Assembly (NCBI GenBank): GCA_944358695.1
Contig: CALVRM010000013.1
Location: 18,566-82,565 of the forward strand
Direction: 5' to 3'
DNA length: 64,000 nt
From: an uncultured Bacilli bacterium
Lineage (GTDB): Bacteria; Bacillota_I; Bacilli_A; RF39; UBA660
In this document: one piece after another, positions 34,722-61,042 of the stretch
Layout: each line of letters opens with the position of its first letter
Position numbering within the stretch: position 1 is the stretch's first letter
The notes under the pieces: model-generated
What the model was told of the DNA's origin: nothing
The model's database searches: none
Seen by the model: only the letters and a program-made list of their open reading frames with translations
Made by a program: the position numbers and the translations under genes

Positions 34722-34755
34722 ATAGAAAAATAAGACTTTATAAATCAAAAGTCTT
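34722..34755 (-). terminator. Rho-independent terminator ending the long minus-strand array
   Basis: AATAAGACTTT-N10-AAGTCTTATT followed by TTTT on the minus strand. Confidence 0.55.
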
Positions 34756-37063
34756 ATTCCATATCATCGTCATCGGCAAAGAAATCATCGAAGAACTGAT
34801 CATCTGTGACATAATCTTGAGAATTAGTAATTGACGACTTTGATTTAGCTGGCACAGTTTCTTGAACAGTTTCTTCTTTGACGTTTTTCTTTCTGGCATT
34901 TTCATTTATTTTATTAGTAATTTTTGAAGCCAATTCTTGCTTCGAAATACTATGTTTATTCTTAGGAGTAGCCGGAACAACCGTAGTCTTAGCCGGTTCT
35001 TTTTTTTCATTTTGATCATTTTCTTTAGCAATATTCTTTGGCTCTGAAACTTTAGTTACAGGCTGATTAGAAGTTGAAGGCATTTTAGGAGCGGCTCCGC
35101 CTTTTCTTTTAGTATTTAATTCAGCTTTTTGTTTTTCTTCTTCAGCTTCTAATTCAGCGATTCTTTCATCAATACGTTTAAATAATGCTTCGATATCAAC
35201 ATTGCCTTGTTTACGTTGTACTGGTGGCTTAGCATTTGGCATAACTGGCATATTAGGCACTGGTCTTTGTGGATGGTTTTGCCTCATGTTGCCGCTAATG
35301 ATTTGATTGATTCTTTCTTCTTTTTTCTTGTTCACGTAACCTTTTAAATCAAAAATATGAATTGGTTCTTTAACTCTTTGCGGATATATTGCTTCACTAG
35401 CAGATTGTGACTTATATAATGGTGGCCATTCCATTTCATGATCTAGTTTAAGTTTAGTTTTAAATGGATCTAAACGGGTACGCAATAAAATAATTTCACC
35501 ATATGGCAATTTTTGTAGATCACTAACGGTAATAAGTGGTCTTGTTTCTTCTTTTTCTTTTTCACCTTTCCCACTTTTTACTTTTATTTCACCACACATG
35601 GTACTAATTTCTTTTAACGCATCTAATTCCGTACTAATTAAATAAATAATATTTTGGCAGTTACCCTTGATAGTGTCACCTTTATTTTTGCCGTAAACTT
35701 CTGATAATTGAGCAAAGTTTTGAATAATGAAGGTAAAGCGCATGTTACGGCTTCGAGCCGCTGATACCATCGTTTCTACGTCTTTTAATGGTGGCATATT
35801 AGCGAACTCATCAAGAATAAAGTTTGTACGATATGGAAGTTTTCCGCCACATTTTTGAGCATAATCTACCAAAGTTTCGTAGCACTGTTTAACAAAGATT
35901 GTAACTAATGAGTGATAAGTAGTTTTTTCATCTTGAATAATGATAAAAACCGCGGTTTTTCTTTTACCGATATCTGATAATTCAAAGTCACTATGGGAAA
36001 GCATTTCTGACATGTTTTCTCTTGAAGCAAATAATCTTAGTTTTTGTTTAAAGACTGACAAAATACTTCCTTTAGTGTCACTAGGGGCAATTAAAGTAGA
36101 GGAAGCACTAACATAAGCTGGAGAGGCTGGATTTTTAGTGTTAAAATATTCATTGACATAGGTGGTTGTTCCACATTTTTCTTCACCAATGGTTGTAAAT
36201 AAATTAACACTATTTAGATTAATTTCTTCTTCTTTAGCATCTTCAAACAAAGCTAAACATAATCCAGAGAAATAATCGGCTGAAGTTTTTTCCCAAAAGG
36301 GATCTTGATTACTAGCATTTTGTTCATACAAAATATTAACCGCCAAGTCATCAACTAATTCGTTAGCTTTATCGCTATTGCCTTCTTTATAATATTGGTA
36401 AGGTAAATGTAGGGGATTCCACCCACTACCACGCTGCGGATCACGGAAATTCAAGAGAACGACATTATAGCCCCTCTCTCTTAACATTTTTGATGTTTTT
36501 TCATATATCTCGCCTTTAGGGTCAGTGATAATCATTGACTCATCATGTTTAGCTAGAGTTTTAACCATTGGTAAAACAATCATTTGCGTTTTTCCACTAC
36601 CAGATGAACCCATAACAATACTATGGCCTTCTCCATTGTCAACCCAGATATGTTTACCATCGTTCATTAAAGGAATTCCGCCAGCTTCTGCGGTCTCAGA
36701 ATTTACAAGGACTTCCTTAATATCTCTTGCTTTTTTAAATTCTTTAACTTCTAGCCATTTTGAATAGCCTTTTTCCTTCTTTTTAGTAGTTGATATACCT
36801 AATCCCTTCTCAACGTCGAAAAAGCGATCAGAGACGCTTAAAACGCTAGCAACTAGGGCTACGACATATAAGGTTAAAGTAATACCTATAAAGTTTTTAC
36901 TAAATGCTGGAAATGGATTAAATCCGTGAAAAGGACGATCAATATCCCCAGCGGCAAATTGAGCAATATTTAAAACTGCTATTGCAACAAAATACAATAA
37001 TACTACGGCATAGACACCAAACATAATCCAATCTTTTGAATCGGCAGTAAATTTTAATTTCAT
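34754..37063 (-). CDS. Type IV coupling protein (VirD4/TraG/TcpA-like T4CP)
   Basis: Two N-terminal TM helices and Walker A GSSGSGKTQ. ...HSIVMGSSGSGKTQMIVLPM...TDPKGE... and ...NFILDEFANMP are typical of TraG/VirD4. An acidic C-terminal tail follows. The gene has its own promoter (TGCTATAAT) after an upstream terminator. Confidence 0.85.
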   Translation of the reverse strand: MKLKFTADSKDWIMFGVYAVVLLYFVAIAVLNIAQFAAGDIDRPFHGFNPFPAFSKNFIGITLTLYVVALVASVLSVSDRFFDVEKGLGISTTKKKEKGYSKWLEVKEFKKARDIKEVLVNSETAEAGGIPLMNDGKHIWVDNGEGHSIVMGSSGSGKTQMIVLPMVKTLAKHDESMIITDPKGEIYEKTSKMLRERGYNVVLLNFRDPQRGSGWNPLHLPYQYYKEGNSDKANELVDDLAVNILYEQNASNQDPFWEKTSADYFSGLCLALFEDAKEEEINLNSVNLFTTIGEEKCGTTTYVNEYFNTKNPASPAYVSASSTLIAPSDTKGSILSVFKQKLRLFASRENMSEMLSHSDFELSDIGKRKTAVFIIIQDEKTTYHSLVTIFVKQCYETLVDYAQKCGGKLPYRTNFILDEFANMPPLKDVETMVSAARSRNMRFTFIIQNFAQLSEVYGKNKGDTIKGNCQNIIYLISTELDALKEISTMCGEIKVKSGKGEKEKEETRPLITVSDLQKLPYGEIILLRTRLDPFKTKLKLDHEMEWPPLYKSQSASEAIYPQRVKEPIHIFDLKGYVNKKKEERINQIISGNMRQNHPQRPVPNMPVMPNAKPPVQRKQGNVDIEALFKRIDERIAELEAEEEKQKAELNTKRKGGAAPKMPSTSNQPVTKVSEPKNIAKENDQNEKKEPAKTTVVPATPKNKHSISKQELASKITNKINENARKKNVKEETVQETVPAKSKSSITNSQDYVTDDQFFDDFFADDDDME

Positions 37064-37154
37064 ATATAGCCTCCCTAATGCTTTTTATTGTTAGTTAGTA
37101 TATAATATTTTAACTTAAAATTCAAGTGATTTAACTATAATACAATTATAGCAT

Positions 37155-37185
37155 AAAAAAGTAATATATTGAATATTACTTCGTG
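37155..37185 (-). terminator. Rho-independent terminator between the 259-aa gene and the T4CP gene
   Basis: AAGTAATAT-TCA-ATATTACTT followed by TTTTAT on the minus strand. Confidence 0.5.
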
Positions 37186-37186
37186 C

Positions 37187-37966
37187 CTATTTACAATCAT
37201 GTATTAATTGCCACGTATCATTATCTAGTCCATATATTTGATAGCAAGTATCAAAAGTTGGAATATCAACCATTCCTTTAGTAACTATAAATTCATACTT
37301 TCCATCTTCATTAATATCCAAAACTTCACGGATAAAATATGGTGTATTTGCACTTGAAGCTATTACTTGGGTTACCTGCCCGTTTTTAGTAGCAAATAAC
37401 TGAGAAACTTTAGTTTCAGGACTGTATTCTAAGCTTTTATTAGTCGTAGTATAAATTGACTCTTCTATCCCGTCTCCATCAAAATCATAAGTAACTTTTC
37501 TAGTCGAATTGGTAAAGTTATCAATATTAGTAACATTATCTTTTGCTAAAGCTTCTCTTAAAACATTTTCATCATTTTGTGAATAATAGCTTTTGTCATA
37601 ATTAGCTATCCCGATTTTTTCTTCTCCTGAATATGCAACTCTGACTTTATCAGCATCAATATTTTTATAGTTTTTATCCATATAATACCACTGATTAGAA
37701 GTATATGATAAAGTAGATTCTTTATAAATTTCGTCGTCAGCATAAACATTATATTTTTGCTTTAAAATGTCGTCGTTAACCTTTGTTATTTGATCCCAAC
37801 CTTTTCCATTTTTCTCAAGAATTAAAGTCCCATCAATTATAAGGTATTTACTCGAATGGTGATTGGCAAAAATTGGTTTAAATATTACTACCAAAATAAT
37901 TAAAACGATTACTACAATTAAAATTATAATACCTATTTTAATATTTTTATTTGTTTCATCTTCCAT
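37187..37966 (-). CDS. Bitopic membrane protein of unknown function (possible VirB8/TcpC-like scaffold)
   Basis: N-terminal TM IKIGIIILIVVIVLIILVVIF, an extracytoplasmic domain with DFDGDGIEE (Ca-binding-like) and a C-terminal Cys pair. Confidence 0.45.
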   Translation of the reverse strand: MEDETNKNIKIGIIILIVVIVLIILVVIFKPIFANHHSSKYLIIDGTLILEKNGKGWDQITKVNDDILKQKYNVYADDEIYKESTLSYTSNQWYYMDKNYKNIDADKVRVAYSGEEKIGIANYDKSYYSQNDENVLREALAKDNVTNIDNFTNSTRKVTYDFDGDGIEESIYTTTNKSLEYSPETKVSQLFATKNGQVTQVIASSANTPYFIREVLDINEDGKYEFIVTKGMVDIPTFDTCYQIYGLDNDTWQLIHDCK

Positions 37967-38045
37967 GGTTTCACCTACTTTATAACAATTATATAAAGTA
38001 TGATTTTTAATGTCAACGTTATTTTATTTTTATTTTTAATTTTTA

Positions 38046-38642
38046 TTGAATAAGATAATTATAATTGATATAATTTATAATAAAGGGTGTGATAAAGTGG
38101 AAGATAAACAGGTCAAGATGATTACATATTTGAAAAAAACTATAATTATTTTATTAATTATCACATTAATAGTTATTGCAGGCGTTTTTAGTTATCGATT
38201 CATAATGAAAAAAATCAATACTGACAAATTCATTGATTATTTATCTGAAAATGACTATCAAGAAAAAAAAGATGGTTCTTATCAAAAAGAAAGTGAAAGC
38301 GACGATGTACTTATAAGATATAAAGCGCTTTCTACTGACTCTATAATTTCAAAAGAAACTTATGAAAACACCGAAAATGATTATACAAGCATTTCGCTAA
38401 AATACGAAAAAAATGGAAATATTGTTATCGGATTGCAATTTGAAGGATACAACAAACAAAATAACTATGGCGTTCTTTACCAAACTGGTAATTATAAGGA
38501 TGGAAAGTTTGATTGTCAGGTAGTAACCGGAAAAGGTTTTGAATCTAAATGCGATATCTTAAAAGATAAAGCTGAAGACTTCAATAGCGAAGTAAAACAA
38601 ATCCTGGAAAAAAACGAAATTAGTGCTAAATATATATCATAA
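38046..38642 (+). CDS. Hypothetical membrane-anchored protein, on the opposite strand and embedded in the array
   Basis: 198 aa with one TM (IIILLIITLIVIAGVF). The start is uncertain (38046 vs internal 38118). It has its own terminator. Confidence 0.5.
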   Translation: MNKIIIIDIIYNKGCDKVEDKQVKMITYLKKTIIILLIITLIVIAGVFSYRFIMKKINTDKFIDYLSENDYQEKKDGSYQKESESDDVLIRYKALSTDSIISKETYENTENDYTSISLKYEKNGNIVIGLQFEGYNKQNNYGVLYQTGNYKDGKFDCQVVTGKGFESKCDILKDKAEDFNSEVKQILEKNEISAKYIS

Positions 38643-38660
38643 AAACATTTTTAAAATATG

Positions 38661-38692
38661 CCAAAAGTACTTCCAAAAAGAAGTGCTTTTTT
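38661..38692 (+). terminator. Rho-independent terminator
   Basis: AGTACTTCC-AAAAA-GAAGTGCT followed by TTTTTTAT. Confidence 0.55.
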
Positions 38693-38845
38693 ATAGCCAA
38701 AATAACTGTAAAAACCTTTAAAACAACTTAAGATAAAATTATTATGAAAAAAGATTGTCTTCTATAATCATAGACTACAATCTTATAATTAAAATAATTA
38801 ATAAAAGTTTAATTAAAGTTATAATTTTTTATTAAATATATCATT

Positions 38846-40747
38846 TTACCAAATTGAACCTAAGTTTTTAGCACTGGCAACTCTTTTACCTCCCCATTCT
38901 GGAAACCACGTTCCAGATCCAGGGTTTCCATGTTGATAAAAATGAGCACGTGATACTTCAAACTCTAAAACATTTTGACCGTCACTATGGCCCCATTTAT
39001 TATAACCCTCGTCACCTGAACTTTTAATATCAGCTATAATAGTTGGTATCAAAGTGCCATCTTCTAAAAAGAAATCTACTTTATCACCAACTTGTCCAAA
39101 AGTTTCAGTACAAGCAATTAAATAGCGTCCTTCATACACAGCTATACCATTATCAAACTGTCCACCACTTGGAAGCCAATAATCATAGTATAATTTACCT
39201 TGGTTAGAGTTTCTAGCCCAATTCCATGAATTATCACTATTGCTATAATAGGTAACGGTAAATATACCATTCCCATATTCTTCTGGAATTATGATATCAC
39301 CAGAGGTTATACATTCATCAGAGGTTGACGTTCCAATTTTACCAAATTCAACATCAGTAGCATACATAACTCGATATGTTTGTACATACCATCCAGAATA
39401 GTTTTCATCTAAAGTTTTCCCCGTAGGGGCTCCTGGATCTATAATTGTAACTTGGTCTCCATTAACGCTGTCGACAGCTACCCAGTGTTGATTACTGCCA
39501 TCATGACTAATTTGAAGGACAATAAATTTTTGAAATTGCCCATCTATTGGCGTTGAAAGCTCGTCGGATAAAGTTTCTGCTAAAGTAGCACGGTCACTAG
39601 TTCCAACTTCTCTGGATTCTCCTACTCGCCAATTAGGTGCAATTGAAGTGTAACCACGCCAATTAAAAGCACCTCCACTACTAAAACCACCATTATTATT
39701 TAAAGTGGTTACCAAGGCACCTGGATTAAAAGAAGCGTAACCATCGGGCAAATTTAATATTTGCGTGCCTGAACGCGACATTTGAATAGCTAATGAAGTA
39801 ATTAAACATCCAATGTTCGCCATGCTATCAGCACCACCGACAGAGATATTACCCCATTCTGCATCCGCTTGTTTCCAATTAGAAAAACCGGTAGAAACGG
39901 TTGTTGGACAAACATTTGCCCTGTCACCTCTTAGTTTGCGATAATAGTCGGCTAAATCAATAATTTCCTGAGCAATACGTTCTTTATAAGCATTACGCCT
40001 ATTCTCATCTTCTATTTTATAAGCATCATACACTCCACCAATATAGCCGTTTTGGCATATGCTGGCCATGTTTTGAAAACGTGTTGCGGTTCTTTCTCCT
40101 TCGGTAATTACATCTTGGCCTGTAATAAATTGATAAGTAATATTTGCAATACTGAAAATTCCATCCGCAGCGGCACCGGCAACGCAAAATACCCCATTAT
40201 AAAAATCTTTTGTGAACCCGTCTTCCATATTATTTCCTACTAATTTATCGCCGGCAAGAGCTTTTTTATAAGCATCTTCATTATATGTTCCGGTCCAACC
40301 AGCGGCATCAGCCATAATAACAGCCGCTGCAGTTAAAAGATCTACTTGTTCAGATTTAGGGTTAACACCTATGGAATTCCCGTTTATTTCTTTTTTTTCT
40401 TGTTCACTATTATCTGAACTATTTTCGGCTTTAGTAAAAGCAGTGTTCAAAGAGGCTTTATAGGTATTAGCATCAAAGTTCTCTTCATATCTACTTGCAA
40501 CGGCTTGATAAGCTCCTTCTTTATGAAGAACTGTCGCCGCCAATGTTACTTCGTCAATAGTATTCCCAATTACTGGAAGACTTTTAATAATTTTAATTCT
40601 TTCAATAAATTGCTTTTCCATCTTATATGTTTCGGGATCACTATCTCGAAAAATAATATAAGCTTGGGCTTTGTCTGGAATAATTATTGTGCTGATAAAT
40701 ATTGCAAAAAGAAAAAGTAAAAATGTATATTTTTGTTTTTTCCTCAT
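38846..40747 (-). CDS. Secreted cell-wall hydrolase, VirB1/TcpG/CwlT analog, with a Peptidase_C39-like domain and a C-terminal 3D-like domain
   Basis: Signal peptide. ANIGCLITSLAIQMS ... HWVAVDSVNGDQVTIIDPG gives the Cys/His pattern of the C39-like family. The C-terminal ...ACTETFGQVGDKVDFFLEDGTLIPTIIADIKSSGDEG...LEFEV resembles the 3D (MltA/YuiC-like) domain. Confidence 0.6.
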   Translation of the reverse strand: MRKKQKYTFLLFLFAIFISTIIIPDKAQAYIIFRDSDPETYKMEKQFIERIKIIKSLPVIGNTIDEVTLAATVLHKEGAYQAVASRYEENFDANTYKASLNTAFTKAENSSDNSEQEKKEINGNSIGVNPKSEQVDLLTAAAVIMADAAGWTGTYNEDAYKKALAGDKLVGNNMEDGFTKDFYNGVFCVAGAAADGIFSIANITYQFITGQDVITEGERTATRFQNMASICQNGYIGGVYDAYKIEDENRRNAYKERIAQEIIDLADYYRKLRGDRANVCPTTVSTGFSNWKQADAEWGNISVGGADSMANIGCLITSLAIQMSRSGTQILNLPDGYASFNPGALVTTLNNNGGFSSGGAFNWRGYTSIAPNWRVGESREVGTSDRATLAETLSDELSTPIDGQFQKFIVLQISHDGSNQHWVAVDSVNGDQVTIIDPGAPTGKTLDENYSGWYVQTYRVMYATDVEFGKIGTSTSDECITSGDIIIPEEYGNGIFTVTYYSNSDNSWNWARNSNQGKLYYDYWLPSGGQFDNGIAVYEGRYLIACTETFGQVGDKVDFFLEDGTLIPTIIADIKSSGDEGYNKWGHSDGQNVLEFEVSRAHFYQHGNPGSGTWFPEWGGKRVASAKNLGSIW

Positions 40748-40759: not shown

Positions 40760-41428
40760 TTAAAGCTTATTATTATTTTTAGTTTTTATTTTGACAATTA
40801 TAAAGGTAATTGATAATATTAATACTACAATTAAGACTATCACCATAAGTTGATAATTTGGAGCCTCTTTAATGACTTCTTCTAGACTAACTGGTTTTTT
40901 TATTTCTAAATTGATAGGCTTGTTTTCATAATTATTTTCATTTATATTCCATGTATAGGTATTACCACTAACTTTATCAGCATTATGCGATTGTACTTTT
41001 AATTTTGTAGTAATATTAATATCAACCTTTTCAAGAGAAGCACCATCTTCCATTTTGATACAGTTAAATTGATCGCTAGTCGATAAAGTAATGGTTTCTT
41101 CAGTGCTATTTAATTTTACAGTTTGATAACACTTTTTAACAAACATGCTTTGGGCAAACATTTCGTGGCTATGTGAATATTCATATGTTAAATAATAATT
41201 ATCATTGTCTTCTGATAAGTCGCTTGTGTATACTGCACTATTACTGTCTGATGGATATACTTTGTTTCCAAGCTGCAAATATGGTTTTAATTGATCTTGG
41301 CTAATTGTTTCTCTAGGAATAGCAACTTCAACCTTTTCATTTATTGACGATTCATCAATCGTTAAATTATACTGAGCTGTACACCCGGTAATCAAAAATA
41401 TCAAAATAAATAGTAATATTTTTTTCAT
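40760..41428 (-). CDS. Hypothetical lipoprotein with a C-terminal TM anchor
   Basis: MKKILLFILIFLITGCTAQ lipobox and a C-terminal LMVIVLIVVLILSITFIIV. The ORF-track start at 41449 adds 7 aa. Confidence 0.55.
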   Translation of the reverse strand: MKKILLFILIFLITGCTAQYNLTIDESSINEKVEVAIPRETISQDQLKPYLQLGNKVYPSDSNSAVYTSDLSEDNDNYYLTYEYSHSHEMFAQSMFVKKCYQTVKLNSTEETITLSTSDQFNCIKMEDGASLEKVDINITTKLKVQSHNADKVSGNTYTWNINENNYENKPINLEIKKPVSLEEVIKEAPNYQLMVIVLIVVLILSITFIIVKIKTKNNNKL

Positions 41429-41451
41429 TTCATCACCTTCATCAATCAAAT

Positions 41452-48889: not shown

Positions 48890-48930
48890 TATGATTATAT
48901 AATACTTTAAAAATTGGGTTTTGTCAACAA
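48890..48930 (-). promoter_or_regulatory. Strong sigma-A-type promoter for the pilin-like genes
   Basis: Minus strand TTGACA-(17 nt)-TATTATATAAT, then RBS AAGAGGAGG. Confidence 0.55.
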
Positions 48931-48952
48931 TTTAACACTCTTATATGTCAAT

Positions 48953-48986
48953 CACTTTAAAAATGGACTTTTACTGAAAAAGTCCA
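48953..48986 (-). terminator. Terminator overlapping the stop codon of the TadZ-like gene
   Basis: Minus strand GGACTTTT-TCAGT-AAAAGTCC followed by ATTTTTAAAG. Confidence 0.45.
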
Positions 48987-49995: not shown

Positions 49996-50529
49996 CTAAT
50001 CATCTATTTTTTTGAAAGTCATAGTTTCACCAGTTACCGGAATTCTTAAAAGATTTCCAGCAAATTCAGAAACTACGGGAATATCTAAATACATAAAGGT
50101 TGTAACGCGATAATAGTAATAGCATTTATCTTTATTAACACAGTCCTCCATAAGATAAACGCAATACTCATATTCATTGGTTCGCGTAAGTAAAGTTCCT
50201 TCACTATCTTTACAAAATGAGCTAGTGTTTCGACCACCATTAGTGTTTAAAGGATAACCAACTCCAGTAGCATTGAAGGTTTTTCCATTACGGCTACCCC
50301 CACCTTTTAACCAATCGTTAATTTCATTTATTGTATTAGTGTTATAAGCATTGGCAGTCTCTTCAACCGTTTCAGCGGCTTCACCTTCTTTTTCGATCTC
50401 TTCAATAATCTTATTTTTTACTTTATAAGCCTTTGAATAGTCTAATGAACCGATAAAAAAGGCGATCAAAAGAATAACAAAAACTATTACAATATTGAAA
50501 AGCAAGGAATTACCTATGGCTTCATTCAT
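49996..50529 (-). CDS. TadE/TadF-like pseudopilin (paralog b)
   Basis: N-terminal MNEAIGNSLLFNIVIVFVILLIAFF single TM, then a secreted domain with the conserved YCVY Cys pattern. Paralog of 50526-51032. Confidence 0.45.
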   Translation of the reverse strand: MNEAIGNSLLFNIVIVFVILLIAFFIGSLDYSKAYKVKNKIIEEIEKEGEAAETVEETANAYNTNTINEINDWLKGGGSRNGKTFNATGVGYPLNTNGGRNTSSFCKDSEGTLLTRTNEYEYCVYLMEDCVNKDKCYYYYRVTTFMYLDIPVVSEFAGNLLRIPVTGETMTFKKIDD

Positions 50530-51032
50530 AAGCTACCACCTCTTGACGAAAAACGATAAACTCGCTCTCCCTTAGTATGAACAGGGATGTTTAAAACCCC
50601 AGCGATCGGTAAGTCCAGTGAAATATAGCTAACGACACTATAATTATAGTATCTTGGCTCATTACTTTTATTTTTTTCATTTTTAGAACTAGTATCATTT
50701 TCATAGTAATAAACACAGTAGAAATAGTTACTGTCGATATCGGCATTACCATTAGCTTTAGCTACTAACGGAGCACCATTTCGCTCACTTGGACATGCGT
50801 AACTACCACTATTACTAGGCCTTTGGAAATATCCAAAGTTTTCCAAACGCGAAGCTATTTCCGTTTTTGCAAGTTCATTATAACCTTCATATTTTTCAAT
50901 GGATGCTAAAATATATGAATTTACTTTAAATGCTTTATAATAGTTAATAGTTGCGCTTAGAATTCCAAAGACAATAACAATGAAAATAATAATAATATTA
51001 AGTGTTAATGTCGTTCCTATCCCTTCACGCAT
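50526..51032 (-). CDS. TadE/TadF-like pseudopilin (paralog a)
   Basis: MREGIGTTLTLNIIIIFIVIVFGIL N-terminal TM, then a secreted domain with CPSERNG...YFYCVYYY. Confidence 0.45.
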   Translation of the reverse strand: MREGIGTTLTLNIIIIFIVIVFGILSATINYYKAFKVNSYILASIEKYEGYNELAKTEIASRLENFGYFQRPSNSGSYACPSERNGAPLVAKANGNADIDSNYFYCVYYYENDTSSKNEKNKSNEPRYYNYSVVSYISLDLPIAGVLNIPVHTKGERVYRFSSRGGSL

Positions 51033-51357
51033 AACTTACCTCCTCGTATAATGTAGTTAGGATATTTTTTAACTACATTTTCTTATTTAGATTTTTGTTA
51101 AGAGATATCTATAAACTCATTATTTTGTAGATTGTAAAATCTATATTATAATGCCTGTAAAGATAGAGTAGTTTTAGCTACCTCCTTGAACATTTGGTTC
51201 TTATTAAAGACTAAAGCCCCTTCTTTACAAATTGGATATTAATAAGTTGTATAAAGATTAGTTTGTTATCTTTTGTCTTTTATTTTGAAACTTTTTCATA
51301 AAATTTATCAAAATCAACTTGACTTATTTATAGTTGTCTTTTTATTCAAAGAATTAA

Positions 51358-51525
51358 TTATTTAATAGTATTAACTTCTGATGTTCCTCTGTCAGAAATC
51401 GTATTAGCTTGATTTTGAACATTGTTCATAACAGTTGTAATAATAATTGTACCAATTGCTAAAACAATAGCAATAAGAACAATTGTAATTACTGTCATAT
51501 TCGCTTCACCTGCTGCCTCTTTCAT
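51358..51525 (-). CDS. Flp-like micro-pilin (55 aa; not in the ORF track; coordinates ±2)
   Basis: Minus strand: RBS AAGGAGGTG then MKEAAGEANMTVITIVLIAIVLAIGTIIITTVMNNVQNQANTISDRGTSEVNTIK. This is a short leader with Gly plus a single hydrophobic helix, as in Flp/Fap pilins. It lies directly upstream of the TadC/TadB/TadA genes. Confidence 0.55.
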   Translation of the reverse strand: MKEAAGEANMTVITIVLIAIVLAIGTIIITTVMNNVQNQANTISDRGTSEVNTIK

Positions 51526-51559: not shown

Positions 51560-52351
51560 CTACAAATTCATCATAGTCATCATCGAAAGTAGCAAGAACA
51601 TTAAAATTCCCCCACCTGTACCAAATAACATGACCATGGTTCTTTGTTCCATTCTATCAAGACGTTCTTTATATTTTTGCTCTCGTGCTTTGTTTTGCAA
51701 AGATGAAATGGTTCTTGAAAACATAAGCAATTGTTCCTGTTTATTTTCTTGGCTACCTAATCCAAGACGATATAACAAACGCATCATTCTCATTGAATCA
51801 CGAACTGGATATTCATTAGCAAAGTCCATATATGGTTGAACACTAGAGTCTCCGGCATCAATTTTTTGAATTAAACGTTTAAGCCCTGGTTTGAAGATAT
51901 CAGGCGCTGTATCAATTGATCTTGAAAGAGCCACTGGAACAGTATAATGTTGAATTAATATTTCCAAACTTTTTAAATAGTATGGAAGAGTTAAATTAAT
52001 TCGATGTAAATTATTTTTATAATATTTTTTTAAATTTTGGTAAGGCATTTTAAAGACTAAATACCCAACAATTATAGAAATTAGGAAATAGACGAAAGAC
52101 ATTTTTGACATTAAGATAAACATGACAGCAACGATGGCAATTAACCCATTTCTAATTCTTTGACTATATAATTTATTGACATCAACTTCACCATATTTAA
52201 CATTAAGCAAAAATTCATAATCATCTTCCATTAAAAATCTAAAATAAGGTTCAACATCATTAACAAATCGTTTTGAACTAAAATGATGATTGTATTCTAG
52301 GATCAGAATAAAAATTAGTCCAATGATAATAAATATTATTCCTAAATTCAT
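51560..52351 (-). CDS. TadC-like (T2SS-F domain) inner-membrane platform protein
   Basis: 263 aa with 3 TM and a cytoplasmic helical domain LTLPYYLKSLEILIQHYTVPVALSRSIDTAPDIFKPGLKRLIQKI of the GspF/TadBC type. Confidence 0.5.
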   Translation of the reverse strand: MNLGIIFIIIGLIFILILEYNHHFSSKRFVNDVEPYFRFLMEDDYEFLLNVKYGEVDVNKLYSQRIRNGLIAIVAVMFILMSKMSFVYFLISIIVGYLVFKMPYQNLKKYYKNNLHRINLTLPYYLKSLEILIQHYTVPVALSRSIDTAPDIFKPGLKRLIQKIDAGDSSVQPYMDFANEYPVRDSMRMMRLLYRLGLGSQENKQEQLLMFSRTISSLQNKAREQKYKERLDRMEQRTMVMLFGTGGGILMFLLLSMMTMMNL

Positions 52352-53253
52352 TATTCAGCCCCCACATCTTCATTATAGTATTTTTCCCCACTAAGAAGGA
52401 AATATGTATTGAGGATAACAATCCCGTGTAACAATAGTTGAACCCACCAGCTTTGAAGCATTTCAATATATGTATCGACACTGAGAAGAATTTGAACAAG
52501 CATTACCATTAAATATAAAATAATACCGAATTTTAAGAATTTTTTATGGAAATCGGCACGATCTAATCGGTCACGGTACACGCTTTCCACAAGCATATCG
52601 ATATCCAAACTCATATTCTCTAATGACTCACCAGCATCTCTTGAACCTTCATTGGTAATTTGTAAAAACAATTGGTGCATATTTCTTACAATATAATAAT
52701 CGTATTTAGCATTGAAAAAATCGATTGATTGATTAACGGTTCCATTTTCATAAGCCATGTCGATCATTGTCTTTACATCAGCTTTTACAGGATCTTCAAG
52801 AACGCCTGATTCATATACACCTTCTAAAGCTTTTACAAATGATTGTGTAGTTTGAAATTCCATGATGGTATTGGTAGTATATACTTGAATTTGTTCAAAA
52901 ATAAATTCACTATATACTCGCTTACATCTTAAGTAAGTTAAATAAGGAATAACGATTATTGAAAGAGTAGCATAAATTATCGAAATAGCAATGTTATAAA
53001 AATACAAGTATGTGAGAATGGCCGATGAAGCGGCAAAAACGATAATTTGAATAGTATACTGTCTTGCAGTATATTCTTGTCCTAACTCTTTAACTTTTTC
53101 CCTAATTACCCTAAATGAATAAGGAGTATATTTTTCGTATATATAGTTAACCTTTTGGTTAATAAATTTGTAAGCATTTGTCTTCTTATTACTGCGATAA
53201 ACAACAACAAATATGGCAATCGCAAGAACAATTAGAAATATAATAAATGTCAT
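52351..53253 (-). CDS. TadB-like (T2SS-F domain) inner-membrane platform protein
   Basis: 300 aa, TM-cytoplasmic domain-TM topology, with an ATGA overlap with the downstream gene. Confidence 0.5.
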   Translation of the reverse strand: MTFIIFLIVLAIAIFVVVYRSNKKTNAYKFINQKVNYIYEKYTPYSFRVIREKVKELGQEYTARQYTIQIIVFAASSAILTYLYFYNIAISIIYATLSIIVIPYLTYLRCKRVYSEFIFEQIQVYTTNTIMEFQTTQSFVKALEGVYESGVLEDPVKADVKTMIDMAYENGTVNQSIDFFNAKYDYYIVRNMHQLFLQITNEGSRDAGESLENMSLDIDMLVESVYRDRLDRADFHKKFLKFGIILYLMVMLVQILLSVDTYIEMLQSWWVQLLLHGIVILNTYFLLSGEKYYNEDVGAE

Positions 53254-55977: not shown

Positions 55978-58749
55978 TCACCTTCCTGCTGCTCCATACT
56001 TACAACTATAAAATCCATCGTGCCCTGCTCCTTTGCAAAGGCCCCCAGATGCATAAGTTCTTATGAAATCACTTAAGCAAGCTGTTCCATCTTTATTACA
56101 TGAAAGATCAAAATCACTATATGATGTGCTTTTATTATAACTTCTTATTGATTTTATTTTGTTACCATCTAAATCAAAGGTATAAATTGCACTTTGATTA
56201 TAAACCGTTTCATTTTTTACATCACGATTCATGTTTATTGCTGTTTCAATAACGCGACTGGTATTTTGCGTACATTGCAAATTGCCATTTCGATCAATTG
56301 AACACCAATTGGCCCCTGAATTACGTCCAATTCCACTGATTCCAGGGAATGAAGTAATTAAATCAATCGGGCGATAAATAATGTCAATACCATTTGGACA
56401 ATCTTCTCCTGTTGGACATCCGATTGGTACCCCTGGCTTACAAATACTATATTTGCTGGTATAATTTTTGCAATCTTTAGGACCGTCTGCTAAATACCAT
56501 TTACCAGTTGTCGGATTTAAACGATGTATTTCACAACTCTTATAATCGTCAATGCTCACACATCTTTCATCGGGTCCACCTTCATATGGACATTTTTCAC
56601 CATATAAATCCTCGTATTTAGAACAGTTCCCAGTCTCAACCACTTTTCCGTTTTCAATTATTTGGCACTGATTACTAGATACTCGTTTACAGTCTTTTAA
56701 ACCACCATCAGGCACACATTGACCAACATTTACTGAATTACAGTCTACTTCGCGGTCATCAACATAGCACTTTCCTGATTTTTTTACACAATTGGTATAT
56801 GTTTTGATCGGGCACACATATTCATCGTTATTTACGCTTTTGCAGTTGCCTAATTTACTATCTGATTTTCGGTCGTTTTTGCACTTATTATATTCAGAAG
56901 TTCCAAGGCCATATAATTTAGCACAAGCTGTTTGTGATTCAGCTTCACCCTCAACACTAGTATTATAAATGTTTTTTTCACTTTTTACATTAGCGGCACC
57001 AAAATAATCTGATTGGCTTTTGGCATTCCAAGCATCTTTCATATAGCTATTGTCAGTTGGGAAATCATAAGTTAATTTAATAAACGCCGACATTTCTGCA
57101 TACTTCTCGTTTGCCTGTTTAAGTGACACAGGAAGATTAGGAACACCAGAATCAATATAGCTATCTAAATCATCTTTTGGTTTAGAAAATTCTGATTTGA
57201 TATCCTTATTTATATAACGGTATAGATTTTCTGGAAGTAAATACTGTGAAGTTAAGCTCATAGTTAATGTTCCGCCACTTATCGTTTTCTTAACCTCACC
57301 TTTGTTTTCTCTAATTGTATTATTAGCGTTTCCTCCAGAACCTTTTAACTTAGTTGTATAGTCAGTGTCATTGTTTTTCCCATCTACCATTGAATTTGTA
57401 TCAATTCTATATGTTTTAGCATTGCTATTGTAGCTACTATTTTTACTTCCGATAGAAACTAATCTATCAATACTTTCACCTTCAACATAGTGAATAGTTA
57501 CACTACCAGCTGATTTTAAGGTGTTACTATTGGAAAAATTTTGAAGTCTACTTACATTACCACTTTTACTTTGACATTGCATTGTTCTCGTAACTTCGAT
57601 CGGAGCAAAATTAGGATGCATATTTTGCGGAGCTTTTAGTCCAGCTGTAAAATAGCTTCCACTTTGAATACTAATTGTTTGATTGGCATTAGGAAATGTT
57701 ATTTTATATTCTTCACGGCAATAAACATCATCAGCCTTTTTATAATGTTTCTTTACGTTATTGACATCATTACTATCACTTTCTTTTATAGCTTCCCAAT
57801 TAGGCGTATCTTGAATTATATAACTACCTTTGTCAGTTGATAAAGTGCTTGTGCAGTTTTCACAAGCTGCATCTATACTATAATTGTAATCTTTTTTTAT
57901 AGCTTCTGGGCTGATTCCGATTATATTATAGCCAGCTCCATCGTAGCGGTCATTAAATTTATCAAATAGTGATTTGTTAGCACCACTAGGAACATAATTA
58001 TTAAATGGTCCAATACTAACAAAGCCGCCAAAGAAAGCTGCCCATGGGTAACCATTACTTGTCCCAAATTTTCTTAAATCAGCACTCCTAATTCCAATAT
58101 CATCTTTAGTTGTAAAAAGATCACCATTATAACTTGATCCAAACAAGCTTTTCATTGGCCCCAACTTAGAGGCCATCTCTTTTCTAGGAACTACTTGCAC
58201 GCATGCATTTGAGCCATCATTCCAACACTGTAATTCCTGAACAAGAATCCTATATCCATACGAATCAATACCGCCTGGAATGGAAGTTTTGCGATCTAGT
58301 GATCTAACGTTTATATCAAAATCATTCAAATATGTTTGTAAAGTATTGGCATCGCCAATTACCATATTATCTAATACTAGACCGTTATATAATTCACCTG
58401 ATAGGTTAGCTAAAGTCCCGCTATTTACATAACGACACCCGTTGTTGTTGGCGTATGCTTGTGCTTTACTTTCTAAGTCATAAATATTGCCCTTATGTTT
58501 GCCACTATAAGCAACTACGCATTTTTCTTCGCTATAACTACCACCTTGCGGTCTATACACAAAACTATATTTATAAACGCCAGGTTTATAACCCGAACCA
58601 GAGTTACTTAAACCAGAAACTATGCCTCCTGTGTTCCCGCCGCCGCCACCTTGGTCACCAGTACTCCAAGCGTTAGCTATATTAATTCCACAGACAAAAA
58701 GCAAAATCACGGTTAAGAAAAATATTATTTTTTTCTTTTTCGAAATCAT
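55978..58749 (-). CDS. Large secreted, extremely Cys-rich protein (923 aa); candidate pilus-associated adhesin or tip protein
   Basis: Signal peptide ...INIANA, a Gly-rich stretch, and >40 Cys concentrated in the C-terminal 350 aa (CxxxC/CxnC arrays). Confidence 0.5.
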   Translation of the reverse strand: MISKKKKIIFFLTVILLFVCGINIANAWSTGDQGGGGGNTGGIVSGLSNSGSGYKPGVYKYSFVYRPQGGSYSEEKCVVAYSGKHKGNIYDLESKAQAYANNNGCRYVNSGTLANLSGELYNGLVLDNMVIGDANTLQTYLNDFDINVRSLDRKTSIPGGIDSYGYRILVQELQCWNDGSNACVQVVPRKEMASKLGPMKSLFGSSYNGDLFTTKDDIGIRSADLRKFGTSNGYPWAAFFGGFVSIGPFNNYVPSGANKSLFDKFNDRYDGAGYNIIGISPEAIKKDYNYSIDAACENCTSTLSTDKGSYIIQDTPNWEAIKESDSNDVNNVKKHYKKADDVYCREEYKITFPNANQTISIQSGSYFTAGLKAPQNMHPNFAPIEVTRTMQCQSKSGNVSRLQNFSNSNTLKSAGSVTIHYVEGESIDRLVSIGSKNSSYNSNAKTYRIDTNSMVDGKNNDTDYTTKLKGSGGNANNTIRENKGEVKKTISGGTLTMSLTSQYLLPENLYRYINKDIKSEFSKPKDDLDSYIDSGVPNLPVSLKQANEKYAEMSAFIKLTYDFPTDNSYMKDAWNAKSQSDYFGAANVKSEKNIYNTSVEGEAESQTACAKLYGLGTSEYNKCKNDRKSDSKLGNCKSVNNDEYVCPIKTYTNCVKKSGKCYVDDREVDCNSVNVGQCVPDGGLKDCKRVSSNQCQIIENGKVVETGNCSKYEDLYGEKCPYEGGPDERCVSIDDYKSCEIHRLNPTTGKWYLADGPKDCKNYTSKYSICKPGVPIGCPTGEDCPNGIDIIYRPIDLITSFPGISGIGRNSGANWCSIDRNGNLQCTQNTSRVIETAINMNRDVKNETVYNQSAIYTFDLDGNKIKSIRSYNKSTSYSDFDLSCNKDGTACLSDFIRTYASGGLCKGAGHDGFYSCKYGAAGR

Positions 58750-58750
58750 G

Positions 58751-59389
58751 TTAAAACTCCTTTCGACGTTTTTTATATAAAAACAGTCCGATTAAAACGA
58801 TAAAACCAGCGATACAAACGAGAATGATTGTACGATTTTCTTTAAAAAATTCAAATATTTTTTCTTGTAAATTGGGTTCTTCAACTTCGCCTTCAATAGC
58901 ATTTTGATTTCTATATGCTTTTAATGCATCATTAAATTGATCAACAGTTATAGTTGTATTTAGCCACATAGCGCAAAATTGAAAATTAGGATATTTTTTG
59001 CATTCATCACTGGTAGAGAAAAAGTTATATTTGGGCAGTGTAATATATTGAGTGAGTAGTTTATCGCCACGGCAATTTTGATCATTTGAATAAATGTCAA
59101 AAGAAATATTCATACCATTATTAGAATAATTCAGTTGTTTTTCCCCTGAACCATAGATGGTTTGACCAAGTGAATTCTCTTTAATATATATATCATTTGT
59201 TAAGTTGTTGATGTTAACTGTAAATTTAGGATAACCATCAACCATTTCATAGTTATAACTAAATTGAACGTTGGATGCTATTCTTGAAAGTTCAGCTTGC
59301 CTTTCATAACTGCATTCAGCATGGGTAATTAAAGGCGATATAAACATGCAACCTAAAAATACAATTAAACATTTAAATTTTGGTTTCAA
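58751..59389 (-). CDS. Secreted protein with a C-terminal TM anchor
   Basis: Signal peptide ...ITHAEC, C-terminal ILVCIAGFIVLIGLFLYKKRRK, and 6 Cys. Confidence 0.5.
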   Translation of the reverse strand: MKPKFKCLIVFLGCMFISPLITHAECSYERQAELSRIASNVQFSYNYEMVDGYPKFTVNINNLTNDIYIKENSLGQTIYGSGEKQLNYSNNGMNISFDIYSNDQNCRGDKLLTQYITLPKYNFFSTSDECKKYPNFQFCAMWLNTTITVDQFNDALKAYRNQNAIEGEVEEPNLQEKIFEFFKENRTIILVCIAGFIVLIGLFLYKKRRKEF

Positions 59390-59425
59390 AGGCTTAGCCT
59401 CCTTTCCTATTATAACATATTATCA

Positions 59426-61042
59426 TTATTTTAACACATATTTATAGTTATAATTACGCACTTGAAATGTAAAGTAAACAGAAGTAGCTCTTTCAAGATC
59501 TTTATTTACTTCAATATAGGTGTAACCATTAGCACTTCCAATTTTAGGTTTTATACGTTTAGAATCAATTTTATGACTATACCACTTGTTATCAACTTGA
59601 TAATTAATAGTAGCAAATTCATTTAGAAAATAATAAACATCAGAGATTGTATTTAAATTCATACTCTCATCTTCTTCAAACGCACTTTTAAGTTTAATTA
59701 ACGTCTTAGGGTAATTTCCAGTAGCCGTTGGAGTAACATACTCTGAAGATGCCAAACAATTATTTTTTTTAGAGCAAAATTGATATTCAATTTTAAATTT
59801 ATTACTAATTTCAAATTGATCAATGGTGAAAGTTGATTCACCAAGGACACTTCCTGAAAAACTTAAAGTTTCACTAAGCTTCTTTTCTTCAGTTTGAACT
59901 TTTTTAGTTAAATCAACAGGGTTTAATTTAACGTATATGTTTTTGGCGCCAATTTCACCACGAATAAAACTAACGTTATCATTTATCTTTAAAGTCATTG
60001 ATTTAGCACTTTCTGATTTAGGGATTTCAAAAGCTAAAATATAATTGGTAAAATCAATTGATAGTTTATCGTTAGTATATGGCGTTCCAATGTCAGTTAA
60101 ATCTTCATTGTAATTTGTAGTTTGTCCATATGATTTACCCCCGGCTTTTAAAGTGATTAAACCAGTATTTAATCTTTTAGTTTCATCTTCAACTAATTTA
60201 CGAACATCAAGTCTAACAACTACCAGTACATTATCAGCAGCTACGATTTGTTTATCGTTTTGATCGGTAGTCGTTAAATAAGAATTTTTGACATTAAATC
60301 CAAAGTTACTAGCTACAAAAGTTTGGGCTTCTTGGTAACTAGCTGTATAAATACTTTTGGTCATAAATATTATAAAGCTAACAATAACTACCAAAATTAT
60401 GGCTAATACATTAACGACAAATTTATGTTCAATATAAAAATATTTTAATTCGCGAAATTTACCGCGGATATTACGTTTCATTTTGTTTTTATCAAATTCA
60501 ACGGCTACTTCAAATTCTTCATTATCTTTAACGTCAATCTCTAAGGCCTCTAAATCACTACCAAAATTAAATTGTTTGATATCAAAGCCAGTCGCTCTTA
60601 CGATGGTAATAATACAACTTATTATTTGAATGCCTGCGGCAATATAAGTTATATCTCTGAGGGCTGAAGATAAACGAATATCTAAGATGCGATCATAAAT
60701 ATTATTCATAACGCTGTAATCGACACCGTATAAAACCATAAGCGCAAGATAAATGATTAAATTAAAGATGTATAATTTTTTAGGTTTATCTTTAACAAAC
60801 ATTACGGAAAGTACAACAATAGTAAAAATAATTACAATTAAAACAACGAGGAAACTATAAAAATTGATATAGTCCCCTAAAACAAAACCGCTACTTGCCG
60901 TAGCGTAATCTTGAATATAGTCAGTTAAAAAGTTACCAATAACAATAGTACGATAAATTAGCATAGCCATTAAAATAGCCATGATTAAATTGATTATTCT
61001 AAAATATTTTATAAAGAATGCGTATGGTTTCCTAAGTATCAT
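59426..61042 (-). CDS. Polytopic membrane protein with a large extracytoplasmic C-terminal domain; first gene of the array
   Basis: 538 aa with ~6 N-terminal TMs. The upstream promoter has a -10 GGTATAAT and RBS GGGAAGGGG. Confidence 0.5.
   Translation of the reverse strand: MILRKPYAFFIKYFRIINLIMAILMAMLIYRTIVIGNFLTDYIQDYATASSGFVLGDYINFYSFLVVLIVIIFTIVVLSVMFVKDKPKKLYIFNLIIYLALMVLYGVDYSVMNNIYDRILDIRLSSALRDITYIAAGIQIISCIITIVRATGFDIKQFNFGSDLEALEIDVKDNEEFEVAVEFDKNKMKRNIRGKFRELKYFYIEHKFVVNVLAIILVVIVSFIIFMTKSIYTASYQEAQTFVASNFGFNVKNSYLTTTDQNDKQIVAADNVLVVVRLDVRKLVEDETKRLNTGLITLKAGGKSYGQTTNYNEDLTDIGTPYTNDKLSIDFTNYILAFEIPKSESAKSMTLKINDNVSFIRGEIGAKNIYVKLNPVDLTKKVQTEEKKLSETLSFSGSVLGESTFTIDQFEISNKFKIEYQFCSKKNNCLASSEYVTPTATGNYPKTLIKLKSAFEEDESMNLNTISDVYYFLNEFATINYQVDNKWYSHKIDSKRIKPKIGSANGYTYIEVNKDLERATSVYFTFQVRNYNYKYVLK

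Follow-up and report, generated by a model that had tools for sequence, protein, structure and literature searches.

According to a 2025 review, Gram-positive type IV secretion systems (T4SSs) "universally lack VirB11 homologs", Patescibacteria are the only monoderms with potential conjugative pili, and chimeras of a type IV pilus (T4P) with a T4SS are listed for PAPI-1 and pT33-3 only (PMC12857230). A comparative study of the same year likewise describes Gram-positive T4SSs without VirB2 pilin genes (PMC12102498). In plasmid pLS20, the conjugation genes have been described as an operon in which gene 37 was called a 'putative VirB11' and genes 36 and 38–47 were listed as unknown (PMC8557374). 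Here, a stretch of 64,000 nucleotides from an uncultured Bacilli bacterium (GenBank assembly GCA_944358695.1, contig CALVRM010000013.1, positions 18,566 to 82,565; hereafter the window, whose own coordinates are used throughout) was analysed for the dense gene array on its minus strand at 34754–61042, in which Tad-like genes adjoin the VirB4/VirD4 core of a T4SS. With a probability that we put at roughly 0.6, this locus is a chromosomal, vertically inherited, pLS20-type Gram-positive T4SS with an integral type-IV-filament (Tad-like) module.

The initial annotation of this DNA had read the array as a hybrid of a Tad/Flp-type pilus module and a conjugative T4SS core. Its observation proved largely right, and its interpretation is partly supported. 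A module of ATPase, platform, CpaB, MinD/ParA-like and pilin-like genes is indeed physically joined to a VirB4/VirD4 core; the hybrid is not unique, since the same design, recurrent yet for the most part unrecognised, is present in the experimentally studied pLS20 operon, with its gene 37 (PMC8557374), and in Enterococcus faecium pZB18. The type of T4SS and the extra ATPase are thus known. What appears to be new is the company of that ATPase (a platform pair, CpaB, a MinD-like protein and pilin-like proteins), the presence of VirB2-like genes in the family, and a relaxase-less chromosomal version fixed across a very large uncultured gut lineage. No description of the locus in RF39-like bacteria, or of pLS20 genes 36–41 as pilus-like, was found in the literature covered; most subscription journals lay outside that scope, and the negative is not proof.

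Kinship with plasmid transfer regions and other systems

When the ATPase was compared with plasmids by tblastn, the best matches were found on pLS20-family Bacillus and Enterococcus plasmids, where the gene is annotated as 'CpaF/VirB11 family protein'. In a pLS20-family plasmid and in pZB18, an adhesin gene is followed by small open reading frames (ORFs), a DUF5411-like gene of 120–130 amino acids (aa), the ATPase, two membrane proteins of about 250 aa and a 120-aa protein; next come tiny hydrophobic proteins, a VirB2-like protein, two unknowns and VirD4 (CD1115); and the series ends with a p028-family VirB6, a VirB3-like protein (DUF5592), an ORF of about 200 aa, VirB4 and a wall hydrolase. 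The window has the same order, except that VirD4 stands last, after the hydrolases, whereas in the plasmids it precedes VirB6. To this pLS20 order the locus adds CpaB and a MinD/ParA-like protein, and it has two or three VirB2-like genes with a promoter-like motif of their own. On the plasmids, a MobP relaxase and genes for replication are present, and transfer is controlled by quorum sensing (PMC8557374); the locus is chromosomal, and none of these was found in the window.

At the level of individual proteins, the ATPase is 32% identical to pLS20-family gene 37 (1e-43) and has the same hit profile, and the VirD4 protein is 26% identical to the pLS20-family type IV coupling protein (T4CP; 4e-56) and matches the same CD1115 NCBIfam equivalog, which is also the name given by RefSeq to the pLS20-family and pZB18 T4CPs. 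VirB4 matches its pLS20-family counterpart at 1e-34, with the best NCBIfam model common to both. By hhalign, the family of the 300-aa platform protein was aligned with pLS20-family gene 38 at 97.7% probability (E 1.6e-12), and a weak BLASTP match (E 0.02) connects the 263-aa platform protein with gene 39. Gene 36 of the pLS20 family matches DUF5411 at 1.4e-5, and gene 45 matches T4SS_pilin above its cut-off. A comparison of the VirB2-like family of the locus with gene 45 gave no signal. Further correspondences are positional: the 923-aa gene occupies the place held by adhesin genes in pLS20-family plasmids and pZB18, the VirB6-like gene lies where VirB6 lies in both, and the 229-aa lipoprotein gene stands at the position of the pLS20 VirB8-like gene. 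VirB4 is divided into an N-terminal and an ATPase ORF in the pLS20 family (192 and 631 aa) and in pZB18 (205 and 651 aa, with a 151-aa ORF between them). When hhalign was run from alignments of close relatives against single proteins of pLS20, pZB18 and the Mycoplasmatota plasmid CP074574, low probabilities were obtained for the small proteins and the 300-aa family; these negatives are read as a lack of power, because the alignment that included distant homologues gave the 97.7% match.

CP074574, a plasmid of 98 kb that MOB-suite classes as non-mobilizable, likewise has a divided VirB4 (295 and 600 aa), and directly downstream of it, at 19062–32022, lies a canonical Tad set: SAF/CpaB, a 613-aa AAA ATPase, CpaF, two T2SSF-like proteins, two Flp pilins with G/SPSLEY and TadE-like proteins. 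The plasmid may represent an independent instance of the association. MOB-suite types the pLS20-family plasmid and pZB18 as MPF_T, a Gram-negative class; the VirB11-like ATPase probably misleads the typing here. In pZB18, vanA lies beside the transfer region. Two clostridial candidates were set aside: in the gene tables and text of the two papers on them, C. perfringens pCP13 Pcp and C. sordellii cst have VirB4, VirD4, VirB6 and VirB1 homologues, and no ATPase–platform or pilus genes are given.

Compared with the Tad/Flp systems of Caulobacter, Aggregatibacter and Pseudomonas, the locus shares CpaF as the closest solved relative of its ATPase, a paralogous platform pair with a predicted PilC/GspF-type cytoplasmic fold, CpaB/RcpC, a protein of predicted MinD/ParA fold like TadZ/CpaE, and both very small and larger pilin-like proteins. 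It differs in having no G/XXXXEY motif, no Flp, TadE or T2SSF Pfam matches and no prepilin peptidase in the window, in the degenerate P-loop of its MinD-like protein, in the absence of a secretin from the locus, as expected for a monoderm, and in the welding of the module to VirB4 and VirD4. The T4SS of Patescibacteria offers another parallel, being a relaxase-less chromosomal monoderm system with arrays of divergent VirB2-like (PF18895) genes in reduced genomes, and it has been read as co-opted from conjugation (PMC12102498). It belongs to another phylum, however, and in that study the type IV pilus is treated as a system apart, and an ATPase–platform module does not figure among the T4SS-neighbourhood components surveyed (PMC12102498), whereas the present locus has VirD4 and a contiguous pilus-like module. 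Cooperation between a type IV pilus machine and T4SS ATPases in DNA transfer is known from the IncI plasmid R64 and the PAPI-1 island, and in R64 the thin pilus is needed for liquid mating (PMC12857230); R64 and PAPI-1, in contrast to the locus, use Gram-negative type IVb pili with canonical pilins and a peptidase, encoded in separate clusters, and the homology is only superfamily-level. In the integrative conjugative elements (ICEs) of Mycoplasma (Mbov_0395–0397, MMCAP2_0566), a likeness is seen in VirB4_plasma as the best model for both VirB4 parts and in weak matches of the VirB2-like proteins, but all scores lie under the family cut-offs. We know of no CpaF or platform module in Mycoplasma ICEs. 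Finally, a natural language processing (NLP)-based study predicted a DUF5411–CpaF–PilC 'secretion-related' operon in the Lachnospiraceae-type genera Roseburia, Ruminococcus and Eubacterium and did not mention T4SS genes; by its description, this operon has 8–9 genes and combines the same DUF5411/CpaF/PilC trio with a large surface protein (PMC9523054).

Conservation and chromosomal setting in gut Bacilli

With the ATPase as query and each species represented by one genome, at least 578 matches were obtained, and gene order was read in the best 80, with 10-kb flanks. These best 80 matches, 69–93% identical to the query, come from uncultured gut metagenome-assembled genomes (MAGs) labelled Bacilli, Tenericutes, 'Acholeplasma sp. 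CAG:878', Ca. Coprosoma and Ca. Fimihabitans; NCBI places two of the named genera in Mycoplasmatota or Bacillota incertae sedis, and three of the related genomes are complete chromosomes of 1.26–1.54 Mb. Wherever the flank reaches, the genes follow one order: the 538-aa, 212-aa and 923-aa proteins, DUF5411, CpaB, the ATPase, the 300-aa and 263-aa platform proteins, the pilin-like protein, the 168-aa and 177-aa proteins, the MinD-like protein, two or three copies of the VirB2-like gene, VirB6, VirB3 and the two parts of VirB4. The two halves were thus found together in this fixed order and not, as the initial annotation had envisaged as the contrary outcome, separately in related genomes. The same order in about 80 species-level genomes places the array far beyond chance.

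Across species, the motor proteins are 70–80% identical and the exposed proteins 31–48%, a pattern of conserved motor and variable exterior that is the signature of a surface machine. The 538-aa protein is kept at the same position in 69 of the 80 related loci with a median identity of 34%, the 212-aa protein in 64 of 80 (median 31%), and the fast-evolving 923-aa protein has a median of 34%; the 229-aa lipoprotein is 73% identical in the closest locus and 23–34% in most. The variable part of the cluster is the stretch between the lipoprotein gene and VirD4, which holds the 633-aa and 259-aa proteins and an opposite-strand ORF; the 633-aa protein is present in some relatives only. For the ATPase-domain ORF of VirB4, median identity reaches 80%, and its separation from the N-terminal ORF is kept in all 40 loci compared and abolished by fusion in none, the stop and start codons overlapping.

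Downstream, a metagenome scan with VirD4 as query revealed the run VirD4, rhodanese, (helix-turn-helix gene), rmuC, a membrane protein, rnr and smpB, which is syntenic from 86% down to about 50% VirD4 identity; the adjacency of rnr/smpB to the cluster is kept in several relatives with a long enough flank. Upstream neighbours vary among species yet are housekeeping genes (scpA/scpB, a uracil-DNA glycosylase-like gene, pflB/pflA). The identity of VirB4 rises and falls with the identities of RmuC (rho 0.69, n 20) and RNase R (rho 0.94, n 6). The locus lies beside rmuC–rnr–smpB–ssrA, with the cluster 5' of ssrA and six genes between them, and the array has the same composition as its flanks in a window that is AT-rich throughout (26–35% G+C). 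From the synteny, the housekeeping flanks and the co-divergence with RmuC and RNase R, it follows that the locus is passed on vertically and keeps one chromosomal position. No relaxase, integrase or replication gene was detected in the 64 kb, among the cluster genes and the 20 largest other ORFs, and the status of a mobile element is not supported here. The 'conjugation' label of the initial annotation therefore keeps its VirB4, VirD4 and hydrolase, whereas the defining relaxase was not seen in the window; with the fixed site and the co-divergence, this leaves 'conjugative' unproven for the locus.

Outside the array, the window consists of ordinary chromosomal genes, among them nusA, dnaJ, a gerA operon, argG/argH, a PBP5-type carboxypeptidase, ogt and transfer-messenger RNA (tmRNA). 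The GerA-type spore germination operon is complete (GerA, GerAC and spore permease, 9983–13720), and the PBP5-type D-Ala-D-Ala carboxypeptidase is encoded at 17507–18586. The organism looks walled and spore-forming, its genome being small, and the wall-less (Tenericutes/Mycoplasmatota) labelling of its relatives therefore seems wrong. The tmRNA, with tag AQLNITGKSEKGAFGSANLAFA, lies in 29266–32205 beside smpB and rnr; a T-box leader at 20323–20545 precedes argG/argH; and a RhuM-family 'virulence protein' (7466–8497, PF13310 at 5e-111) is encoded beside an AraC/GyrI-like regulator. On three complete MAG chromosomes (OZ007038.1, OZ007022.1 and OZ006994.1), the distance between the locus and coordinate 1 is 67–116 kb, or else the locus falls in roughly the last 55 kb; should these records begin at dnaA, the cluster would lie near the origin, which is also the position reported for the T4SS of Patescibacteria (PMC12102498).

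Composition of the two modules

The features of the array are collected in Table 1. Where 29 co-directional genes had been claimed, 24 minus-strand ORFs were counted, and the run is broken by one plus-strand ORF (38046–38642). The tiny or overlapping spacing first described holds for most junctions, which range from a few-base overlap to 36 nt, but not for all: gaps of 53–123 nt occur at five junctions, one of 325 nt lies 3' of the 55-aa pilin-like gene, and the widest, of 879 nt (37967–38845), contains the opposite-strand ORF. No RNA element was found within the cluster with Rfam. Just outside the array, 61138–63997 encodes a tandem pair of paralogues, polytopic membrane proteins each about 480 aa long, with at most a faint DUF5409 match, and of the 80 related loci only the closest relative has the pair.

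Table 1. Features of the array, listed in the direction of transcription (window coordinates)
Feature	Positions	Strand	Basis or best match
538-aa protein, first gene of the array, polytopic or membrane-anchored	59426–61042	-	no family assigned
212-aa secreted protein, C-terminal membrane anchor	58751–59389	-	weak Gram_pos_anchor match, E 0.003
923-aa Cys-rich secreted protein	55978–58749	-	candidate adhesin or tip protein
DUF5411 protein, 138 aa	55548–55964	-	PF17424, 2.7e-48
CpaB/RcpC-like protein, 355 aa	54453–55520	-	PF16976 RcpC
CpaF/VirB11-family secretion ATPase, 393 aa	53268–54449	-	PF00437 (T2SSE), 2e-28
Platform protein 1, 300 aa, PilC/GspF/TadB-like	52351–53253	-	predicted fold
Platform protein 2, 263 aa	51560–52351	-	paralogue of the 300-aa protein; TadC-like by position
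55-aa pilin-like protein	51358–51525	-	leader MKEAAG, then hydrophobic helix
168-aa pseudopilin-like protein	50526–51032	-	conserved leader MREGIG and hydrophobic helix
177-aa pseudopilin-like protein	49996–50529	-	conserved leader MNEAIG and hydrophobic helix
337-aa MinD/ParA-fold protein, TadZ-like architecture	48971–49984	-	predicted fold
Module junction: hairpin (48986–48964), then promoter-like site (48927–48899)	48899–48986	-	TTGACA-17-TATTAT
VirB2-like (T4SS_pilin-like) two-helix membrane protein, 121 aa	48507–48872	-	PF18895, E 0.0045, below cut-off
VirB2-like paralogue, 147 aa	48010–48453	-	PF18895, E 6e-4, below cut-off
314-aa secreted protein, C-terminal VirB2-like two-helix domain	46975–47919	-	weak matches to ICE models
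VirB6-like polytopic protein, 728 aa	44760–46946	-	NF045890 pLS20_p028, 5e-5, 22 bits (cut-off 150)
VirB3/PrgI-like protein, 106 aa	44422–44742	-	PrgI, E 0.054
VirB4 N-terminal domain, separate ORF, 203 aa	43899–44510	-	NF045975 VirB4_plasma, 6e-18, model positions 96–276
VirB4 ATPase-domain ORF, 594 aa	42115–43899	-	P-loop_TraG, AAA_10, DUF87
NlpC/P60 peptidoglycan endopeptidase, 218 aa	41452–42108	-	PF00877, 2e-19; RipC-like, 1e-22
229-aa lipoprotein, C-terminal anchor	40760–41449	-	LppM, E 0.025
633-aa secreted protein, possible second wall hydrolase (unconfirmed)	38846–40747	-	Peptidase_C39, E 0.09
Opposite-strand ORF, up to 198 aa, membrane-anchored	38046–38642	+	no family match
259-aa membrane-anchored protein	37187–37966	-	FG-GAP, E 0.0075; few relatives
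VirD4-type coupling protein, 769 aa, CD1115 family	34754–37063	-	PF02534, 1e-59; TraG-D_C, 2e-26

In the pilus-like module, the CpaB/RcpC-like call was borne out by PF16976 (1.6e-8, 34.9 bits against a cut-off of 28.8), with TIGR03177 cpaB at 1.2e-10 staying below its cut-off. The supposed CpaF/TadA ATPase is a T2SSE-family ATPase whose best solved relative is CpaF (66.7 bits over residues 6–258, reaching into the N-terminal domain), with FlaI next, whereas the VirB11 structure matches the core only (55 bits). The NCBIfam models for TadA, VirB11 and FlaI nevertheless score about equally and all lie under their cut-offs (VirB11 TIGR02788 110 bits, the conjugation-associated TadA model 101, FlaI 94). 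For the two T2SS-F platform proteins of the initial annotation, neither protein of the window has a T2SSF match in Pfam or NCBIfam, but predicted fold and paralogy point to the PilC/GspF type. A search of 1.84 billion cluster representatives gave only 226 relatives of the 300-aa protein at E <= 0.001, and one of the 17 members of a distant full-length alignment matches Pfam T2SSF (2e-5). Its AlphaFold2 model (predicted local distance difference test, pLDDT, 83) brought cytoplasmic domains of PilC/GspF-type platform proteins to the top in two independent fold searches; in Foldseek, EpsF (2vmb/3c1q) took ranks 1–3 at probability 0.98–0.99, and OutF rank 9. The family of the 300-aa protein aligns by hhalign with the 263-aa protein (81.7%, E 1e-5, 154 columns); on this profile-level match the two are paralogues, like TadB and TadC.

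The 337-aa protein, which had been called TadZ-like, is predicted to have a C-terminal domain of MinD/ParA fold, although no sequence-level match accompanies it and its Walker A motif is degenerate (K158, G165 and T167 invariant, GK[ST] absent). In its AlphaFold2 model, the C-terminal domain reaches a pLDDT of about 90 and the N-terminal domain is poorly modelled; Foldseek placed HypB, ParA, FlhG and MinD at probability 1.0 (E about 1e-5) and TadZ of E. rectale (3fkq) at rank 27 (E 7e-4). A search of the family profile against PDB sequences gave no match, so the signal comes from the fold search alone.

Four proteins, the 55-aa, 168-aa, 177-aa and DUF5411 ones, carry a polar leader of the type M-[KR]-E-x-x-G followed by a hydrophobic helix in dozens of species, an arrangement that is pilin-like in sequence, yet unlike the Flp G/XXXXEY signature. 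In the DUF5411 protein, the conserved leader reads MxKSxWG; a homologue search from this protein returned only close relatives among the matches listed and did not reveal a wider distribution. The N-terminus MKEAxGEANLTV of the small pilin-like family is nearly invariant across species. The protein measures 55 aa in the window and 55–56 aa in the two closest relatives, and about 60–90 aa (mostly 70–80) in most other species listed, where the longer relatives usually have a conserved Cys-rich C-terminus, ACCTDAGGVW..C. The 55-aa form and the 325-nt non-coding gap (51033–51525 region) may reflect a truncation or replacement of the exposed part. At the upstream end of the module, no Pfam or NCBIfam match was found for the 538-aa protein, beside whose gene a promoter-like site lies at 61092–61065, and the 923-aa protein gave no family match and nothing useful by phmmer against the PDB.

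In the T4SS module, profiles confirm VirB4, as two ORFs: the ATPase ORF scores 345 bits with VirB4_plasma and 174 bits with CD1110, and the N-terminal ORF probably starts near 44450, which would make it about 183 aa long. The VirD4 coupling protein is secured by PF02534 and by NF045973 conju_CD1115 above its curated cut-off (323 bits against 250), and the NlpC/P60 wall hydrolase by PF00877. The VirB2-, VirB3- and VirB6-like calls are consistent in position and family, but their scores are weak and below cut-off. Eleven of 20 members of the VirB2-like family match PF18895 at E <= 0.01; the 147-aa paralogue weakly matches the Mycoplasma ICE models MMCAP2_0566 and Mbov_0396; and residues 216–290 of the 314-aa protein match NF045848 (7.7e-7), Mbov_0396 (1e-4) and pilin-like Mbov_0395 (6e-3), all below cut-offs. 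The VirB3-like protein aligns by hhalign at 93% with the CP074574 gene two positions upstream of VirB4. The C39+3D wall hydrolase was not recovered as such: the 633-aa protein has just the faint C39 match and none to a 3D domain, no NCBIfam match, and nothing by phmmer against the PDB.

Between the two modules, 98 nt separate the MinD-like gene from the first VirB2-like gene, and in this gap lie a hairpin resembling a terminator and the region's best promoter-like site. Promoter-like sites across the region are no more numerous than in shuffled sequence, and a single one therefore means little. The junction motif, however, recurs in 53 of 62 related loci, almost always with a perfect TTGACA, a 17-nt spacer and TATxxT, which is unusually strong conservation for non-coding DNA given that the proteins of the neighbouring genes are just 47–58% identical; the hairpin recurs in 20 of the 62. 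The motif would thus act as a genuine internal promoter that serves the VirB2-like genes and perhaps all of the T4SS half. Of the fusion that had been proposed as physical and probably transcriptional, the physical part stands, and a single transcript is doubtful because of this conserved strong promoter-like motif. Judged from sequence, the two modules are fused physically and probably do not form one obligatory transcript.

Competing readings and a proposed mechanism

Taken as sets of parts, the ATPase, platform pair, CpaB and pilin-like proteins would have the anatomy of a type-IV-filament machine, and the split VirB4, the VirB3-, VirB6- and VirB2-like proteins, VirD4 and the hydrolases that of a monoderm T4SS. 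One apparatus is the economical reading, because both sets are kept together in compact plasmid operons and in reduced chromosomes. Several points weigh against it. A strict Tad/Flp identity fails: the Flp-like pilin of the initial annotation has, like its homologues, no Flp profile match, no G/XXXXEY motif and no E-Y at +5/+6; its TadE-like pseudopilins, the 168-aa and 177-aa proteins, do not match the TadE profile (PF07811) and show the short leader and helix instead; and no prepilin peptidase (TadV/CpaA, peptidase A24) was found in the cluster or in the 20 largest ORFs that the window has outside it. The ATPase is best named 'CpaF/VirB11 family', as its sequence does not allow placing between TadA/CpaF and VirB11. 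With the conserved promoter-like motif, each half could be expressed on its own; a relaxase could be encoded elsewhere in the genome; and no filament has been seen in any family member. The related MAGs are, moreover, only presumed from their names to belong to order RF39 in GTDB. The pLS20 papers, finally, state that pilus genes are absent, and one of them says the same of VirB2 homologues (PMC8557374).

An unlikely alternative to a single apparatus is that two functionally independent systems are neighbours for historical and not mechanistic reasons: a pilus of Tad-like type that serves adhesion during gut colonisation, and a T4SS with a task of its own. The promoter-like motif at the junction, with its hairpin in 20 of 62 loci, could be taken in this sense, but internal promoters ahead of abundant structural subunits are common within single machines. 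The Tad set of CP074574 follows VirB4 in a different order, and the DUF5411–CpaF–PilC operon of Roseburia, Ruminococcus and Eubacterium is described by itself, with no word of T4SS genes (PMC9523054); against this, the same adjacency and order are repeated in about 80 species with ATPases of 69–93% identity, and independently on compact Bacillus and Enterococcus conjugative plasmids, where the pilus-like genes lie within the conjugation operon, between adhesin and VirD4 (PMC8557374). Somewhat less likely still is that no filament is made at all, the ATPase being a VirB11 that works with VirB4, and the 300-aa, 263-aa and small hydrophobic proteins being T4SS-specific membrane subunits that belong to a monoderm channel. 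Such a view agrees with VirB11 TIGR02788 as the top NCBIfam model, with the name given to gene 37 by the pLS20 authors, and with the missing Flp motif, peptidase and TadE/Flp profile matches. It has to contend with CpaF and FlaI, the best solved relatives of the ATPase, reaching into the N-terminal domain where VirB11 matches the core only, with PilC/GspF cytoplasmic domains at the top of two independent fold searches, with the CpaB/RcpC and MinD/ParA-fold proteins that accompany the ATPase, and with four proteins that bear a short pilin-type leader and hydrophobic helix. VirB11 systems are not known to have a GspF-like partner.

An active or recent ICE, with relaxase and integrase beyond the window, is highly improbable. 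VirB4, CD1115 VirD4, hydrolase and VirB6-like genes are those of conjugative T4SSs, ssrA, a classic island target, is only a few kb away, and upstream neighbours vary between species; but neither relaxase nor integrase was found in the 64 kb, among the cluster genes and the 20 largest other ORFs, housekeeping genes flank both sides with downstream synteny to 50% VirD4 identity, the cluster co-diverges with RmuC and RNase R and matches the flanks in composition, and it lies on the 5' side of ssrA, six genes apart, and not at the ssrA 3' end.

Under the preferred reading of a pLS20-type T4SS with an integral filament module, the CpaF/VirB11-type ATPase would dock on the two PilC/GspF-like platform proteins and polymerise the small pilin-like protein, a process that the 168-aa, 177-aa and DUF5411 proteins would prime. 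The product would be a short filament or pseudopilus, guided through the wall by a CpaB ring and positioned by the degenerate MinD/ParA-like protein. Perhaps tipped by the fast-evolving 923-aa Cys-rich protein, it would make or tighten contact with another cell and, with the aid of the NlpC/P60 hydrolase, open a path through the peptidoglycan. The translocon would consist of the split VirB4, the VirB3- and VirB6-like proteins and the VirB2-like proteins, the last under a promoter of their own, and the CD1115-family VirD4 would feed it the substrate. Efficient mating in liquid is a noted trait of pLS20 and of the Enterococcus plasmids of the pMG1/pHTbeta group, which would fit a contact-making filament. 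More tentatively, and with more doubt than assurance, it is possible that in hundreds of small-genome gut Bacilli species a Tad-like filament able to retract works jointly with a T4SS translocon in cell-contact exchange, as part of the core equipment of the chromosome and in a manner resembling the essential T4SS of Patescibacteria, and that the same principle operates in pLS20 and pZB18.

In the present organism, the role is most likely a co-opted, host-benefiting, contact-dependent exchange, be it DNA export or import or protein delivery, because no relaxase is seen with the locus and it behaves as part of the core gene set in a reduced-genome lineage; self-transfer of a mobile element by the locus is unlikely. 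This co-option parallels that proposed for the relaxase-less VirB2-array T4SS of Patescibacteria (PMC12102498).

The locus bears on how donors find recipients and how the channel crosses a thick wall. One T4SS family carries a complete-looking filament-assembly module, and this family includes the tractable pLS20 and an E. faecium vancomycin-resistance plasmid; if the reading is true, a pilus does serve in some Gram-positive conjugation systems, against what current reviews say. The filament-plus-translocon principle, if true, would drive conjugation of the pLS20 and pZB18 type, and in the gut Bacilli it would move DNA, proteins or nutrients. The relaxase-less copy, fixed in a widespread, uncultured and auxotrophic gut lineage, suggests a domesticated cell-contact machine, which may explain how these bacteria acquire DNA or nutrients and could aid the design of co-cultures for their isolation.

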